DNA from: an uncultured virus (IMG/VR IMGVR_UViG_3300044653_000122)
Taxonomy: Duplodnaviria; Heunggongvirae; Uroviricota; Caudoviricetes
IMG/VR virus record: IMGVR_UViG_3300044653_000122
Strand: one strand, 5' to 3'
Length of the DNA stretch: 23,329 nucleotides
The notes beneath the pieces are model-generated. The model worked only from the letters and a program-made list of their open reading frames with translations, was not told the DNA's origin and did no database searches. Positions 5,747 to 23,329 of the stretch are shown here, piece after piece (position 1 is the first letter of the stretch; the number at the start of each line of letters is the position of its first letter). The translations under genes and the position numbers were made by a program.

Positions 5747-6298
5747 TTAGCTAGCGTGATCAGGAAGCGCCGGAACGGCCCGGGCCGCCGGCAGGGCAGC
5801 AAACGTCTCCACAACCCCGCGGATGTGCTTGCACTGGTGGCGGCGGTAGATCCAGTCCTTGCACGAACAGGCACACTTACGCCCATCCTCACTCTGGAAG
5901 GAAACAACGTAGGGGGCCGACTCCCCGTCATCCTTCGTAACCTCGAAACGGCGGATATCCTGGCGACGCTTCGGCTTCGTCTCCTCGACGAGGTAGCTCT
6001 GGCCCTTGAGAAGCAGGGTCGTCTGGGCCGGCGTCTGGCGGACCATGGGGATGACGACGGCGTTCCGGCCGATCCGGACCGCGTAGTACTCGCCCCCGCG
6101 CTTGGCATGGAAAACTTCCAGGCCTAGCTCCGTGATTTTCAACACGCCGTTGGGGGAGGCGTGGACGAGAGCGAAAGGACCCTTGACCTCCACCACGTGG
6201 CAGAAGGGCTCCATGGCCCGGATGTTCTCGTCGGCCGACCTCGTGGAAGGAAAGTAGACCGGGAAGAGCGACTGCGTCGTGGTGAGATCCGTTCCCAT
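5747..6298 (-). CDS. SWIM zinc-finger domain protein
   Basis: CSCKDWIYRRHQCKHI matches the SWIM CxC-xn-CxH pattern. Confidence 0.8.
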   Translation of the reverse strand: MGTDLTTTQSLFPVYFPSTRSADENIRAMEPFCHVVEVKGPFALVHASPNGVLKITELGLEVFHAKRGGEYYAVRIGRNAVVIPMVRQTPAQTTLLLKGQSYLVEETKPKRRQDIRRFEVTKDDGESAPYVVSFQSEDGRKCACSCKDWIYRRHQCKHIRGVVETFAALPAARAVPALPDHAS

Positions 6299-6365
6299 GC
6301 GCCTTCTACAGGCGGACCAGGGAGAGATCAAAGTTATGGGTACATCTCTCCCCAGTCCTCGACGC

Positions 6366-6875: not shown

Positions 6876-7664
6876 GTGCAACCCGGGGAACACGTCGCCA
6901 TCTTCGCCGCCGACGCCGAAGCCGGCCTCGAAGGTCGCCGCCTCGGTCTTGAGCTGCGAGACACGATCCTCGTGCTTTCGCACGGCCCCAAGTTGAGCTT
7001 CGTGTTCCTCTTCCGCAAACCACTGGATGGGACCGTGGCCGAGCAGATGGTTAAGACGGGGACGGGCGGCTTGAATGTGGACGCGTGCAGGATCGGCACG
7101 GCCGCCGCCGACGCCAAGGCCATGGAAAGGGCCAACACGCCGGGAAGCGGCCAACTCAAGGCGCACGATGCCGGGTTCCGAGGGGCATGGTCGGGCTCGA
7201 CGCCCTACGACACAACGGCCGGGCGCTGGCCACCGAACGTCGTCCTCGTGCACGGGCTGGGGTGCAGGATGATGGGAAATCGGCGCATCCTGACTGGAGG
7301 GAGCGGGGTAGCCGCGACCGTGCACGCATCGGCTGGCTATCAAGGCTCTTCTTTGGGGAGGGACTCCCGTGAGGACGGGAATTGCCACCGAAACGACGAT
7401 GGCACTGAGACCGTAGCCGCGTGGGAGTGCTCCCCAGGGTGCCCGGTGCCGTTGCTCGATGAGCAGAGCGGGGATCGACCCTCGACCGGCCCCCATCCGT
7501 CAAGCGTCCGTGGGGAAAGCATCCTCCGGCCAGGGCAAGGGGCATATCAACGACAGGGCCAGCTTTACGCCGACTCGGGTGGCGCCTCCCGGTTCTTCCC
7601 ACAGTTCAGGGACGAAGCGGAGCTACGCGCCTGGATTGAGCGCTTGATCTCGCCGATCCAGTAA
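6876..7664 (+). CDS. truncated phage-type N6/N4 DNA methyltransferase homolog (catalytic motifs absent)
   Basis: RKPLDGTVAE, GTGGLNVDACRI, GRWPPNV and DSGGASRFF resemble phage MTase inserts; no DPPY or FxGxG motif. Confidence 0.7.
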   Translation: MQPGEHVAIFAADAEAGLEGRRLGLELRDTILVLSHGPKLSFVFLFRKPLDGTVAEQMVKTGTGGLNVDACRIGTAAADAKAMERANTPGSGQLKAHDAGFRGAWSGSTPYDTTAGRWPPNVVLVHGLGCRMMGNRRILTGGSGVAATVHASAGYQGSSLGRDSREDGNCHRNDDGTETVAAWECSPGCPVPLLDEQSGDRPSTGPHPSSVRGESILRPGQGAYQRQGQLYADSGGASRFFPQFRDEAELRAWIERLISPIQ

Positions 7665-14887: not shown

Positions 14888-15040
14888 ATGGACCTCGCTG
14901 CCCTCAAAGCCCGCGCTAAGGAACTCTCTCGCACCCTGGGCCGGATGCCTGAGTCCAAGGCCAGCGAGTCAGACAGAGCCGCCGTGCGTCATGAGCTGGC
15001 GAAGGTCGAGGCGAAGATCCGTGAGCTGGAGGCCAAGTGA
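14888..15040 (+). CDS. small helical/coiled-coil protein (50 aa)
   Basis: Motif-linked ATG; GTGA overlap with the recombinase start. Confidence 0.7.
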   Translation: MDLAALKARAKELSRTLGRMPESKASESDRAAVRHELAKVEAKIRELEAK

Positions 15041-15873
15041 CCGCCCCCGACCTCTCGGGCGCCCAGAACGATGTCCACCTCGTCCAGCTCTGGCTCGCCC
15101 AGCGGCCCGAAACGACCCGGCGGGTCTATGCCCCCGTAGCAGAGGAGTTCCTCAAGGGGCTGACCATCCGAGAGCTTGACGCAGCGCAGCTCATCGCATG
15201 GTCCGAGGCTCTCCAGGGGGAGCCGTCCACCCGATCCCGCAAGGTGAGCACCATCAAGAGCCTCCTGACCTTCGCGTGGAGGACCGGCTACACGCTCCAC
15301 AACGTCGGCCGCGTCCTCCGCTGCGTCCCCATCCCTTCCAAGGTCGCAGAGCGCATCCTGGAGGAGCCCGAGATGGCCCTGCTCTTCGCAGGGGCCCCCG
15401 AGGGACGGGACCGGACCTTCCTCCGCCTCATGTACGCTACGGGAGCCCGCGTCTCCGAGCTGTGCAAGCTCCGCTGGGTGGACTTCGCTCAGCCTGGCAG
15501 GATGACCGTCCTCGGCAAGGGGGCCAAGAAGCGCACCCTCCTGGTCCCCCAGGCCATCCTCACCGAGGTCCAGAGACTCAAGCCGGCGGGAACGCTCCCC
15601 ACGGCCTTCGTCTTCGTGTCCAAGCGCAACCCCACCAAACCCCTCGACCCCAGGGATGCCAGGGAGATCGTTTACCAAGCCAAGCGGCGGTCTAAACTCG
15701 ACCGCAAGGCTTCCCCTCATGTACTTCGCCATTCACACGCGACGCACAGTCTCGACCATGGATGCCCCATCCACATCCTTCAGCAGTCTATGGGCCATGC
15801 ATCCGTCGCTACGACCTCTGTCTACCTTCACGTTCGCCCGAACAAGGGGTCTTCCACCTACATCAAAATCTGA
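15037..15873 (+). CDS. tyrosine recombinase/integrase, XerC/D-like (278 aa)
   Basis: Complete catalytic set: TGARVSE (R), GKG (K), HVLRH (HxxR), MGH, SVY (Y). Confidence 0.95.
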   Translation: MTAPDLSGAQNDVHLVQLWLAQRPETTRRVYAPVAEEFLKGLTIRELDAAQLIAWSEALQGEPSTRSRKVSTIKSLLTFAWRTGYTLHNVGRVLRCVPIPSKVAERILEEPEMALLFAGAPEGRDRTFLRLMYATGARVSELCKLRWVDFAQPGRMTVLGKGAKKRTLLVPQAILTEVQRLKPAGTLPTAFVFVSKRNPTKPLDPRDAREIVYQAKRRSKLDRKASPHVLRHSHATHSLDHGCPIHILQQSMGHASVATTSVYLHVRPNKGSSTYIKI

Positions 15874-19106: not shown

Positions 19107-19778
19107 TCAGACGGTCTCTTCTGGCTCCCAGGCCTCCGAGAACTCCCGGTCAGCGAAAAGCGCAGCGAGTCCAGTGATTTGCTTGAGTCGCAGCACCTCG
19201 TCCGGTTGCATCCCCAGCTCCGCTTGGATTTGTTCATCGGTCCATCCAGCGACATAGAGCATTCTCACCAGGTCGCTCATCACGTCGACTGCATGTTCGC
19301 CACGGGCCCGGTTGTACTCGATGGTCGCAGCGATTCTTCCCTTGAGGTCCGCTCGATCGACGGGGAGGCGAGTGACGGGGAGGTATCCATGGAGGCGCTC
19401 ACAAAGCTCGGGGTGGGAGGCCCCCAGTCTTCGTCGATGCATCCCGTCGACAACGATATCGACCTCGTGCCCCTCTTCATCCGTTGTGGCGTGGGTGACG
19501 ACGGGCATCCCGACGCCGTTCTTGAGCATGGAGTGCTCCAAGAGCCCCATTTCCGGCTTGGCAACGAAGTTGGGGTTACGGTAGTCATCGTACCCTTGCA
19601 CCCGTTCCTTGGGGATCCAGAGGACGAGATCCACAGGTTCCTGGAACGGGGACACACTGTGCAGGGCAACTCGCACCGAGTTCAGAGCGTCGACGCGATT
19701 CTCTAGAGGCAAGCTCCCGATGATTTCGGTGAGCTGTGCGGTCAGGGCCTCCAGGGGTGTGGGCTTGGTTGAACTCAT
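19107..19778 (-). CDS. ibrB: IbrB/YbdM-like ParB-domain protein (223 aa)
   Basis: EPVDLVLW, NPN, IVVDGMHR, GYLPV, NRARGEH, ELGMQPDEVLRLKQITGL, FSEAW. Confidence 0.9.
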   Translation of the reverse strand: MSSTKPTPLEALTAQLTEIIGSLPLENRVDALNSVRVALHSVSPFQEPVDLVLWIPKERVQGYDDYRNPNFVAKPEMGLLEHSMLKNGVGMPVVTHATTDEEGHEVDIVVDGMHRRRLGASHPELCERLHGYLPVTRLPVDRADLKGRIAATIEYNRARGEHAVDVMSDLVRMLYVAGWTDEQIQAELGMQPDEVLRLKQITGLAALFADREFSEAWEPEETV

Positions 19779-20147
19779 GAACGTGTCTCCCGCCGCATAT
19801 ACCATCCTCCGGGGCCGCGTTTCCAGTTGGCGAAGCCAGCCTTTTCGTGGGTTTTCCTTGATGCGTCGTTCGTGTCTGGAATGAACGCGACGCACACCCG
19901 CTCTGGGTGAGAGGCGTAGTAGGCTTCGACGAGGCCCTTTCCGCGGTAGTCCGGCAGGACGAAGATGGGGCCGTGGCGCCAGCCCATCTTCGTTTCATGG
20001 GGCGTCACGAAGCCCACGACCTTCCCCCCTATGAAGGAGGGCTTCCCGCCGTTTGCTACACAGGAAGACCCGTCCTCGGAGGCCAGGCTCCTGCATCGCG
20101 AGACGAACGATCTCCTCCGGGATCTCCGGCGACTTTACAGACCCCAT
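19775..20147 (-). pseudogene. GNAT-family acetyltransferase, split by a frameshift at the C6 run 20024-20029
   Basis: IFVLPDYRGKGL (motif A) and NDASRKTHEKAGF (motif B); N-terminal part lies in another frame. Confidence 0.65.
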
Positions 20148-21382
20148 TTGGCCCTTCGTTTCCTCATGATTTTCCGATAGTTTTCGTACGAGGTTTCGGA
20201 ACTCCTCTGTTGGGAGAAGCCCAACCTTCGGCACATCCGGTCATTGAGAAGGATCGTCTTCGCTACGCGTCTCCACGTGGGGGCTTTTCGTTTAGCCTCG
20301 ACGTCGTAAGGCGCCTCGTCGATCATCTCCATCCCGCGTTTCTCCCGCCACCACTGGCGGTGGACCGCGATCTTGTTCTCAAAGTGTTCCCGTTCTCCAG
20401 CCGGGAGCGAGTCGAGCAAGAACCGGACATAGCTTTCCCAGGTCGGGTGGCTCTTGGGGAGCGTGACATGGCCGTTACCGAGGATATTCCCCCGCTTCCC
20501 CGCGTAGATCGCCCCGTAGTTTGCACCCACGACACGAGCGACGACTTTGTTCCAGGTCTCTGGCTCGATCACGTGCCACATGGCGAGCCCACGCCGCTGG
20601 TCGTCCCCGTACGGTTGGCAGATGCGCATGAGGTGGATGGAGAGGCCCGCCTTGTACATCGCGTCGTAGAGAGGGGGGTAAGGGAGCTTCGTCTTCCCGT
20701 AGTACGTCCAAACGTCCTCTGTCGCCCAGTCGAAGATGGGGTAGACGTTGAAGAGCCCTCCGCCCTTCCAGGCGGTCCACGCCTTTCCCTCCAGGCGACT
20801 CTTCCGATCTCGGGCGATGGCCCGCCAGCGATTGAGGCTCTCTCCGGTGCGAATCCCGACGAGGCAAGCCGTTGCTTCGTCTCCCCCATACCAGTGACCG
20901 AAGAACTCCACGAATTCCTCGAATTCCTGTGCACAGCGCTTGCCTTCCTTGTTGGTCCAGGGGGGGACGTAGAAGGGGTAGCGTGTTCCGTCGACGGTGG
21001 CTACGGGGGGAGGTTCCCGGATCCACTGTTCCCGGGCCTCGGGATCCCAACAGACCCAATAGGGTTGGGCCATGGATACGGCGTTCCGGAGGTGCAGCGG
21101 AAGGGCTACCCAGTGTGGATCGATCACATCCGCATAGAGTCGGAACATTTCTTGGACGAATGCGATCGTCGAAGCGTACTGCCCCTCAAGATCGACATAG
21201 AGGACGCCCACCTTCCGGCCCCGCCGTCTCGCCTCTTGGCAGGTGAGGTGCATCATCACGCCGGAGTCTTTCCCCGACGGTCCAGAGAGGTAGACCTTCG
21301 GGAAGGTGTCAAACGTCCAGGCGATGCGCTCCTTGGCGGCTTGGAGGACATCGATTCCGAGGGAATGCTTGGCGACCTTCAC
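20135..21382 (-). CDS. ibrA: IbrA/YbdN-like PAPS-reductase-fold protein (DUF3440), 415 aa
   Basis: SGKDS loop, YVDLEGQY, LVGIRTGESLNRW, YPIFDW, MRICQPYG, APTWRR. Confidence 0.92.
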   Translation of the reverse strand: MKVAKHSLGIDVLQAAKERIAWTFDTFPKVYLSGPSGKDSGVMMHLTCQEARRRGRKVGVLYVDLEGQYASTIAFVQEMFRLYADVIDPHWVALPLHLRNAVSMAQPYWVCWDPEAREQWIREPPPVATVDGTRYPFYVPPWTNKEGKRCAQEFEEFVEFFGHWYGGDEATACLVGIRTGESLNRWRAIARDRKSRLEGKAWTAWKGGGLFNVYPIFDWATEDVWTYYGKTKLPYPPLYDAMYKAGLSIHLMRICQPYGDDQRRGLAMWHVIEPETWNKVVARVVGANYGAIYAGKRGNILGNGHVTLPKSHPTWESYVRFLLDSLPAGEREHFENKIAVHRQWWREKRGMEMIDEAPYDVEAKRKAPTWRRVAKTILLNDRMCRRLGFSQQRSSETSYENYRKIMRKRRAKWGL

Positions 21383-22002
21383 GGCTCCATCTCCGAGAGC
21401 GTTGGAGGAGACTCAGGATCAAACAACCGGAGCGCTTCTTTCTGCGTCAGCCGCACGATCCGATCCCCCTCGACAGTGAGAAGTTTGCGGTCGCCCTTCT
21501 CCCCCACCTCGTACACCCGGCCCGGCCAGAGACGGTAGTGACGTTTGCCATCGACGACGACCCAGCCGAGTCGACGGGGCGTTCCGAGACCAGCAACTTC
21601 GGCGACCCAGGGACGATCATCGGGATCATCCCGTACTTCGAGGACTCTTGCCGGTCCGGCGGCACCTTCGGCGATAGCAAGCGCTTCGTCGGGAGTTCTC
21701 TCAATCATCCGACCCCCGATCAGGGAGTAAAACTCGCGAGCGACGTATCGTTTGCTCGATTTTCCACGGCATCGACTCACCTCGTAGAGGTTACCGTCGT
21801 GGAGGGGGAAGGTTGCGACGACACCGTACAGGTTACCGCTCCATGCCGCGTGGGCGTTCTTCCAGTCGTTCATCGCCTTGACGAATTCTCGTCGGAGCCC
21901 GAACCGTTCCGGATCGACACCGACGATCTTGGCCACCCACGGCTTTGGGGGCGGCCCGCCGTGGAAGTGGCCGTCGATCTCGATCTTGTACATCTTGAGC
22001 AT
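21379..22002 (-). CDS. hypothetical protein with duplicated PWVA..G motif, first gene of the ibr operon
   Basis: KPWVAKIVG and RPWVAEVAG; stop overlaps the ibrA start. Confidence 0.8.
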   Translation of the reverse strand: MLKMYKIEIDGHFHGGPPPKPWVAKIVGVDPERFGLRREFVKAMNDWKNAHAAWSGNLYGVVATFPLHDGNLYEVSRCRGKSSKRYVAREFYSLIGGRMIERTPDEALAIAEGAAGPARVLEVRDDPDDRPWVAEVAGLGTPRRLGWVVVDGKRHYRLWPGRVYEVGEKGDRKLLTVEGDRIVRLTQKEALRLFDPESPPTLSEMEP

Positions 22003-22095
22003 AGTCTACGACTCGCACCCCTCTTACCGCCGGGCGTATCCAGGATCAAATCGTATATACACCCGTGGGAGCCGTGGGAGAGGGCTTTGCCCCTG

Positions 22096-22470
22096 CTAGT
22101 AGATCGCCTTGCTCGCATCCTCGGGAGTGAAGGAGCCGGGGTTGGCTTCCCACTTGTGTCGGATGTCCCAGGGGGACATGACCTGATCGCAGCGGGCGAC
22201 GTTGTTGATCTCGATGACGAACCGGCCCTTCTTCGTAGTGACGATGCCCCTCACGAAGGCGTGGGCGATTCTCTGGACCCCGAACTGGACGGACGTGTTG
22301 CTCGGGCAGGCGCCGAGCTTGGTCGAGGACCAGGGGAGGTCGGGCATCCAGCGGTACTGGGAGCGTGCGCCGCCTTTGGGGCCTTGGTCGACCTTGATTT
22401 CGGCTCCGCAGCGGGAGCACCGGCCCATGTTTTCGGGGTACGTCTCGGGGAAAACCCAGTGGTGCTTCAT
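22096..22470 (-). CDS. hypothetical protein (124 aa)
   Basis: ORF track; variant TTGATC motif at 22476-22502. Confidence 0.7.
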   Translation of the reverse strand: MKHHWVFPETYPENMGRCSRCGAEIKVDQGPKGGARSQYRWMPDLPWSSTKLGACPSNTSVQFGVQRIAHAFVRGIVTTKKGRFVIEINNVARCDQVMSPWDIRHKWEANPGSFTPEDASKAIY

Positions 22471-22506
22471 GCTCTCTATACCGTCGAGGCCCCGGGGATC
22501 AAATTT

Positions 22507-22872
22507 TCAAGGGCATCGAGAGCTGTGCTCCTGCGAGCCGCATGTGCCAGAGGGGGATCTCTGGTTCCAGTACAAGCAGCAGCGAGTTACCATGGTGTCG
22601 GTTGAACTCGCGTTGATTTGCGTTACGGATGAGCGTACTGGGGGGGGGGGGACTTCCAACCTGGTCTCCGCCACCCAGTAGGTCATGTTTCCCCGCACGA
22701 TCTTGGTGCCTACGGGGATCCGGTCGTGTTGAACAAGCCAGACGGGCATTGGACCTCCTCCCGGGTCAATCCACCACGAGCATCGGGATTCCAGCTCTTC
22801 GTCCGAAGGTCGGAATTCTCCAGCCTCCAGCCTCCAGGTGCGAGCTGAGGGGTTCGTACCCCTCCCCCACAT
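22507..22872 (-). CDS. hypothetical protein containing a 12-nt homopolymer tract
   Basis: ORF track; G12 at 22640-22651 encodes VPPPP on the minus strand. Confidence 0.5.
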   Translation of the reverse strand: MWGRGTNPSARTWRLEAGEFRPSDEELESRCSWWIDPGGGPMPVWLVQHDRIPVGTKIVRGNMTYWVAETRLEVPPPPVRSSVTQINASSTDTMVTRCCLYWNQRSPSGTCGSQEHSSRCP

Positions 22873-22994
22873 TCATATCTCCAGGCTAAGTTGGCCACGC
22901 TCAGCCCTGAACAGCTCGCCTCTGAGGTGCGCTGGTGCGGGGATGGGCGGGGCGGAGTCGTCTTCTGACTCGATTTCCTCGAAGAAGACTATGT

Positions 22995-23323
22995 GTGGCG
23001 ACCCAGTCTCGATCGATCATGGTTTGCCACGATCCGGCAGATCGACACCTCGGTGTATCTACAGCTGTGGCGACCCAGTTCCGATCGATCATGGTTTGCC
23101 ACCCCTCGTGTGGCTCGGTGACGAACTCGCACACCCAATAGTGGCGACCCAGTTCCGATCGATCATGGTTTGCCACCTCCTGAGATGGCTCCCGTGATCG
23201 TCCCTGAGTTGACGGTGGCGACCCAGTTCCGATCGATCATGGTTTGCCACGGGTGATGACCTTGCGGCTCCTCGAAGGAGACGCTGAGTGGCGACCCAGT
23301 TCCGATCGATCATGGTTTGCCAC
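22995..23323. CRISPR. CRISPR array, 36-bp repeat GTGGCGACCCAGTTCCGATCGATCATGGTTTGCCAC, 5 repeats and 4 spacers, truncated by the window end
   Basis: Repeats at 22995, 23067, 23141, 23215, 23288; unique spacers of 36, 38, 38, 37 nt; first repeat has 2 substitutions. Confidence 0.95.
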
Positions 23324-23329
23324 CGCCCA

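Follow-up and report, generated by a model that had tools for sequence, protein, structure and literature searches.

A small CRISPR array with an unclassified repeat in the terminal part of an uncultured virus sequence

Gene content and replicon

The stretch of DNA analysed here, hereafter the window, is 23,329 nt long (62% G+C) and carries an integrase, an AlkB-type dioxygenase, a ParB-like protein and many small ORFans to the left of a short CRISPR array. Logan contigs of four public runs (X1–X4) were aligned to positions 20000–23329, with run X4 covering a small share, in the PAPS-reductase gene only. The features of the window are as follows.

Throughout the window: many small ORFans
951–1481, + strand: AlkB-type dioxygenase
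5747–6328, − strand: SWIM-finger protein
6876–7661, + strand: methyltransferase-like ORF
15037–15870, + strand: tyrosine recombinase (integrase)
19107–19892, − strand: ParB-like protein
20135–21379, − strand: IbrA-like PAPS-reductase/DUF3440 protein
22096–22470, − strand: 124-aa ORFan with a CxxC motif and a GC3 of 0.89, the nearest gene to the array
22471–22994: 524-b flank on the left, non-coding and probably on the trailer side, with indels in run X2
22995–23030: repeat 1, degenerate copy, with changes in the predicted loop; the same variant and the same left flank occur in run X2
23031–23066: spacer 1, 36 nt, without a match
23067–23102: repeat 2, consensus
23103–23140: spacer 2, 38 nt, with a near-match on a 41,747-b contig of X2 and a 5,048-b contig of X3, − strand
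23141–23176: repeat 3
23177–23214: spacer 3, 38 nt, with a near-match on the same X2 and X3 contigs as spacer 2, + strand
23215–23250: repeat 4
23251–23287: spacer 4, 37 nt
23288–23323: repeat 5
23324–23329: spacer 5, first 6 nt only, cut by the end of the window (probably of the contig)

Protein families were sought in 100 ORFs, namely 97 of the 198 ORFs of at least 50 aa, picked by a GC3 above 0.66, and three long ones. Pfam families above the cut-off were present in four of these 100 ORFs and PHROG matches in eight of the 61 compared; neither collection gave virion or packaging genes in the 23-kb window, and the window held no tRNAs and no Rfam family (0 matches at the gathering score). The 124-aa ORFan matched only itself among 5.8 billion clustered proteins, and had no family and no PDB relative. 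We regard the 524 b between this gene and the array as non-coding because the X2 strain differs there by indels of −5, +1 and −7 nt, the sum of which is not a multiple of 3. This stretch contains a G12 tract (22640–22651) and a CTCCAGC repeat of 2.9 copies (22818–22837), which are 5 nt and 7 nt shorter, respectively, in the X2 strain.

The integrase, the AlkB-type protein and the array's neighbouring gene all have their record on a single JGI contig of 147,329 b. As the difference between 147,329 and 23,329 is exactly 124,000, the window is most likely the last piece of this contig, and the array probably ends the assembly, at the end of a 147,329-b soil metagenome contig. Relatives of the integrase and the AlkB-type protein (60–74% identical) occur together on contigs of 123,354, 452,726 and 548,821 b, and their co-occurrence extends overall to contigs of 7–549 kb. 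This pattern suggests a conserved lineage of large elements, such that the window may belong to this lineage or may be an island within large replicons. No arrays were detected at 24 metagenome loci of integrase relatives, and the integrase of the window was not detected at 1e-60 in 401 genomes from the phylum of G001. The closest phage integrases are less than 37% identical, and a near-mode comparison of the whole window with phages and plasmids produced no relevant match.

A module of three genes of the IbrA/IbrB type on the − strand (19107–21999) encodes the ParB-like protein, the IbrA-like PAPS-reductase/DUF3440 protein and a 206-aa unknown protein. It recurs at 48–77% identity on two IMG/VR contigs (L001 and L002), which share only these three genes with the window and are without the array. 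Beyond these contigs, the ParB/PAPS-reductase module is common among phages that infect many hosts.

Array architecture and repeat family

A 36-nt repeat, GTGGCGACCCAGTTCCGATCGATCATGGTTTGCCAC, is present in five direct copies with starts at positions 22995, 23067, 23141, 23215 and 23288, giving a start-to-start spacing of 72, 74, 74 and 73 nt (TRF period 74). Repeats 2–5 are mutually identical, and repeat 1 has CT for TC at repeat positions 14–15 (23008–23009). The four complete spacers measure 36, 38, 38 and 37 nt and are mutually unrelated, with pairwise alignments falling within shuffled controls (p 0.26–0.85); none matches elsewhere in the window at up to eight differences. The locus thus has the generic features of CRISPR, namely near-identical direct repeats within the 23–55-nt range, regular spacing and unique spacers of like size, and we conclude that 22995–23329 is a genuine small CRISPR array. 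An earlier reading of the letters alone (the sequence-only reading) had described spacers of 36–38 nt, a leftmost degenerate copy, a central GATCGATC palindrome and the lack of a GAAA(C/G) terminus; each of these was recovered on measurement, with repeat 1 carrying both changed bases and neither strand ending in GAAA(C/G).

Two further likenesses were observed in the window. The 19 nt to the left of repeat 1 (22976–22994) are identical at 15 of 19 positions to the end of spacer 4 (23269–23287), with TCCTCGAAG common to both; this likeness is unexplained, at p ~0.001 against shuffles and ~0.01 after 10 comparisons. Partial repeat-like stretches at 459–485 and 21103–21126 on the + strand, identical at 21 of 26 and 19 of 23 positions to the first two-thirds of the repeat, lie inside coding regions, score marginally above shuffled repeats and are probably due to chance.

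RNA folding agreed with the proposal that the repeat ends pair with each other, followed by CCA/UGG. In the + strand repeat, the ends close in a 7-bp stem, with one G-U pair and A-U pairs among the seven, and the CCA/UGG pairing follows, at −13.2 kcal/mol (z −2.29; equalled by 6 of 200 shuffles). The − strand fold is weaker (−11.9 kcal/mol, z −1.71) because the G-U pair becomes an A-C mismatch. The repeat ends in ...GCCAC on both strands and is without a local 3′ hairpin.

Searches for relatives of the repeat were negative across several collections. Neither the exact repeat nor its form with NN at positions 14–15 had a match in viral (IMG/VR), genome (GTDB representative) or JGI metagenome contigs. 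A loosened pattern, GTGGCGANCCAN{12,16}TGGNTTGCCAC, gave two single chance matches in IMG/VR, and the 16-nt repeat ends gave 17 and 8 loci there, every one a single match. BLAST of the array against samples of three phyla (1,193 genomes) yielded only chance-level matches in 401 genomes from the phylum of G003 (best per-genome E, 0.001) and none at 1e-4 in 401 genomes from the phylum of G002 or 391 from that of G005, so that the absence of the repeat holds for the genomes searched. The Rfam CRISPR-DR models gave no family on 22700–23329 at E up to 10, and full-text literature searches with 11–12-nt fragments from the repeat, and from a dispersed hairpin described below, returned unrelated primer matches only. 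Judged by these comparisons, the repeat family appears to be unclassified, with no relative, from a well-characterised subtype or otherwise, in any collection searched or in Rfam.

A dispersed hairpin family resembling the repeat arms

The loosened pattern matched at least 120 loci in genome contigs, as single dispersed hairpins and no array. This REPIN/MITE-like hairpin is ~110 nt long, with an outer stem GTCATCGCGAG.../...CTCGCAATGAC, an inner stem GTGGCGATCCA/TGGATTGCCAC and a variable loop (for example L016:87–124, L046:12423–12458 and L047:10001–10164, among loci L005–L124). Among the matches listed, 115 of 124 read GTGGCGATCCA-loop-TGGATTGCCAC, and 101 of 124 have a CGCAATGAC-type outer stem within the next 60 nt. 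Genomes of Beta- and Alphaproteobacteria, Opitutaceae and CPR MAGs contain many copies each, and Rfam has no entry for the family.

The inner stem differs by one base per arm from the arms of the CRISPR repeat and has a G-T wobble at the same position. The CRISPR repeat's C/T pair is found in 0 of the 124 hairpin matches listed; unlike the hairpins, which are single and have variable loops, the CRISPR repeats are without outer stems, regularly spaced and accompanied by spacers. Since 20 of the 22 inner-stem bases were set by the search pattern itself, only the existence of the hairpin family is informative, and as the arms are also complementary, the independent information amounts to ~10 bases. 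A resemblance of this degree would arise by chance with a probability of roughly 1e-3, and is at most suggestive.

The hairpin family raises the question of whether the locus could be a REP/REPIN-like hairpin cluster or a decaying tandem repeat instead of a CRISPR array. Identity of both repeat arms to the inner stem of a widespread dispersed family at 10 of 11 positions speaks for such a cluster. Against this stand the uniform 72–74-nt spacing, the four identical copies all in direct orientation, the lack of the outer stems, and spacers that are unique, two of them matching a foreign contig; we consider this explanation very improbable.

Strain variation and spacer targets

Assembly of run X1, which is 100% identical to the window and possibly its own sample and so not independent, also breaks inside the array, at 23096. 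A 313-nt contig of X1 leads out of a consensus repeat into 283 nt without a further one, and these are near-identical to the sequence found to the right of repeat 1 in run X2, which belongs to another study (26 of the first 30 nt identical). The X2 element is ~98% identical to the window (depth 6.4) and passes from the left flank through repeat 1 directly into this same sequence, continuing for 1,130 nt. Since the sequence after the repeat is conserved and repeat-free in X1 and X2, it represents the right-hand flank of the array, and the X2 strain has a solo repeat. Its letters are absent from the window and from IMG/VR. Spacer content therefore differs between close strains, all spacers having been lost or gained between them, with the proviso that Logan contigs show presence, not absence. 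The 36-nt repeat contig of X1 has a depth of 90 against 14.2 for the flank, which corresponds to ~6 consensus copies, four of them within the window, and leads to an estimate of ~7 repeats for the whole array.

Near-matches to two spacers were detected on a contig of 41,747 b in X2 (depth 18.3) and a contig of 5,048 b in X3, both of which carry both sites. X2 and X3 derive from one sample, and the protospacers are thus seen in one sample only. Spacer 2 aligns over 35 nt with three differences, with two of the last three nt also matching, and spacer 3 over 38 nt with two differences, such that both protospacers differ from their spacers by 2–4 bases. The two sites are ~750 b apart on opposite strands and are flanked by non-repeat sequence. 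By our own arithmetic, ~4e-10 chance matches of a 38-mer with at most two differences are expected in a data set of this size. Thus two of the four complete spacers match one contig of X2/X3, as expected for spacers originating from foreign DNA. The array produced one match each, at a chance-level E of 0.09, in phage and plasmid records, the spacers had 0 matches in 179 fetched loci, and the letters flanking the targets were absent from IMG/VR. The identification of the locus as CRISPR in the sequence-only reading is strengthened by the protospacers and by the variation in spacers between strains.

Orientation and protospacer flanks

A leader on the right, as the sequence-only reading had proposed, and transcription of the − strand are favoured because the degenerate repeat is leftmost and common to both strains and repeats 2–5 are identical; being degenerate and shared, repeat 1 was not the copy duplicated at acquisition. 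The conserved right flank is in keeping with this orientation. Two observations stand against it: the G-U pair in the terminal stem favours a + strand RNA, and the 524-b non-coding stretch on the left could equally be a leader. We consider a leader on the right side to be plausible. No promoter- or terminator-like sites were detected in 22000–23329, and no decayed repeat was detected to the left of repeat 1.

On the + strand, the two protospacers are followed by TAAGGGG and AAAGGAG, identical at five of seven positions. Such identity has a chance probability of ~1.5% by our own arithmetic, for two sites and one side, in a 7-nt frame selected once the letters had been seen. On the − strand, these flanks precede the protospacers as 5′-CCTTA and 5′-CCTTT; on the + strand, they correspond to a 3′ NAAGG motif. 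If the − strand is transcribed, the flanks would fit a 5′ CCTTN/TTN motif, and so would suit the TTN-type motifs of many Cas12 enzymes.

Cas genes and CRISPR type

The 23 kb on the left of the array yielded no cas family, among 100 ORFs compared with Pfam, 61 with PHROGs and 62 each with NCBIfam and PADLOC; the claim that no cas genes are in view holds for the window ORFs tested against these four collections. Specifically, there was no Cas13b/HEPN, Cas9 or RuvC effector among the window ORFs. The 23 kb likewise showed no tracrRNA anti-repeat, with the top-scoring alignments and duplexes lying within the range of shuffled repeats. As to the CRISPR type, a type V-like system may be considered on the strength of the ...GCCAC end, the pairing of the repeat ends and the possible T-rich 5′ motif.

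A class 1 array, of type III or a type I variant, with a multi-gene cas operon beyond the contig end would be consistent with the dimensions of the array, as repeats of 36 nt with spacers of 36–38 nt are usual for type III and I-A/B/D/G arrays. The derivation of two spacers from opposite strands of one 750-b stretch would also fit primed acquisition. The 3′ end of type I and III repeats typically provides an 8-nt handle of the ...GAAA(C/G) kind, whereas here both strands end otherwise, the stem takes in the outermost bases of the repeat and leaves no free 8-nt handle, and Rfam offers no CRISPR-DR family. We regard a class 1 system as improbable.

Alternatively, the array may be an orphan (cas-less) mini-array on a mobile element, whose crRNAs would be used by the Cas proteins of a host locus with the same repeat, or of a distant locus on the element, and would serve in conflicts with competing elements. 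The lack of a cas gene in 23 kb and the small size of the array, with ~6 consensus repeats by depth, are consistent with this explanation, as is a 262-nt contig of X1 (depth 4.8) in which 232 nt of unrelated sequence are joined to the consensus repeat. This contig indicates that the repeat occurs at a second junction or locus in that community, and its letters are absent from the window; it could, against the orphan explanation, be a strain variant of the same element. The view is, moreover, limited to 23 of 147 kb, with nothing to the right, and the repeat was not found in any genome searched. Passages of a survey of plasmids report 207 orphan arrays versus 338 complete loci and describe orphan arrays as common and shorter (Pinilla-Redondo et al. 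2021, PMC9071438). Because orphan arrays are, by these passages, frequent and short on plasmids, we treat the supply of Cas proteins in trans as a serious rival, while judging an orphan mini-array to be the unlikelier account of the locus.

Discussion

Here we have characterized a small CRISPR array, together with a strain variant of its element and two protospacer matches. The explanation that we favour on balance is that of a recently active array of an unclassified repeat family, located on an integrase-bearing, mobile-element or phage-like soil replicon of at least 147 kb, with transcription of the − strand and a motif 5′ of the protospacer. The array would be transcribed leftwards from a leader on the right side, and repeat 1 would be an old trailer copy. 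The crRNAs would guide a DNA-targeting effector that reads a 5′-side protospacer motif (CCTTA and CCTTT, possibly TTN-like). That this effector lies a short way past the right-hand end of the contig, in the simplest case as a type V-like single effector, has a little less than an even chance in our estimation; provision of Cas proteins in trans is rather less probable, and other arrangements account for the remainder. A bolder proposal, which we hold to be a long shot, is that the array belongs to an undescribed compact type V-like single-effector system of very large soil elements or phages, and that its repeat derives from a REPIN/MITE-like element or shares with it a hairpin recognized by protein.

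These data capture a CRISPR array in use in soil, as samples differ in whether the same element has its spacers. Where the spacers are lacking, the strain occurs together with an abundant contig that they would target. As the repeat family is new to every collection searched, the partner Cas protein could also be new. If the repeat does derive from, or share a hairpin with, a REPIN/MITE-like element, then CRISPR repeats and transposon-end hairpins would be connected here by a living link.

The array was compared with several groups of known systems. With type VI-B (Cas13b) and type II systems it shares a 36-nt repeat with paired ends, a likeness that had led to the suggestion of a class 2 system resembling these types. 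Spacers of type II and VI-B arrays are ~30 nt, unlike the 36–38 nt observed here, and with no HEPN, Cas9 or anti-repeat in view in the 23 kb, this assignment was not sustained. An atypical class 2 system borne by a phage, as put forward in the sequence-only reading, may exist here; the visible 23 kb include an integrase and no virion gene.

Mini-arrays have reportedly been found on viruses by Medvedeva et al. in 2019, and arrays on huge phages by Al-Shayeb et al. in 2020. The present array resembles orphan and mini-arrays in being short, in residing on an integrase-bearing, mobile-looking replicon with no cas gene on the visible side, and in having spacers that match a co-occurring element. 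It is unlike them in having ~7 repeats versus 1–2 spacers, with the cas-less state judged on the visible 23 kb, and in the lack of a host array with the same repeat among the collections searched.

Finally, type V systems (for example V-B and V-F) have repeats of 36–37 nt that end in ...GCAC or ...GCAAC, and 5′ T-rich PAMs. Differences from these systems are the absence of a RuvC effector and of a tracrRNA anti-repeat in the 23 kb, the lack of a repeat sequence relative and, in comparison with the repeats of single-RNA Cas12 enzymes, the missing local 3′ hairpin. The likenesses lie in the 36-nt repeat with its ...GCCAC end on both strands, in the flanks CCTTA and CCTTT, which at two sites with one flank each would fit a 5′ TTN motif if the − strand is that of the crRNA, and in the end-to-end pairing, which recalls the GTTGCA...TGCAAC repeat of Cas12f.
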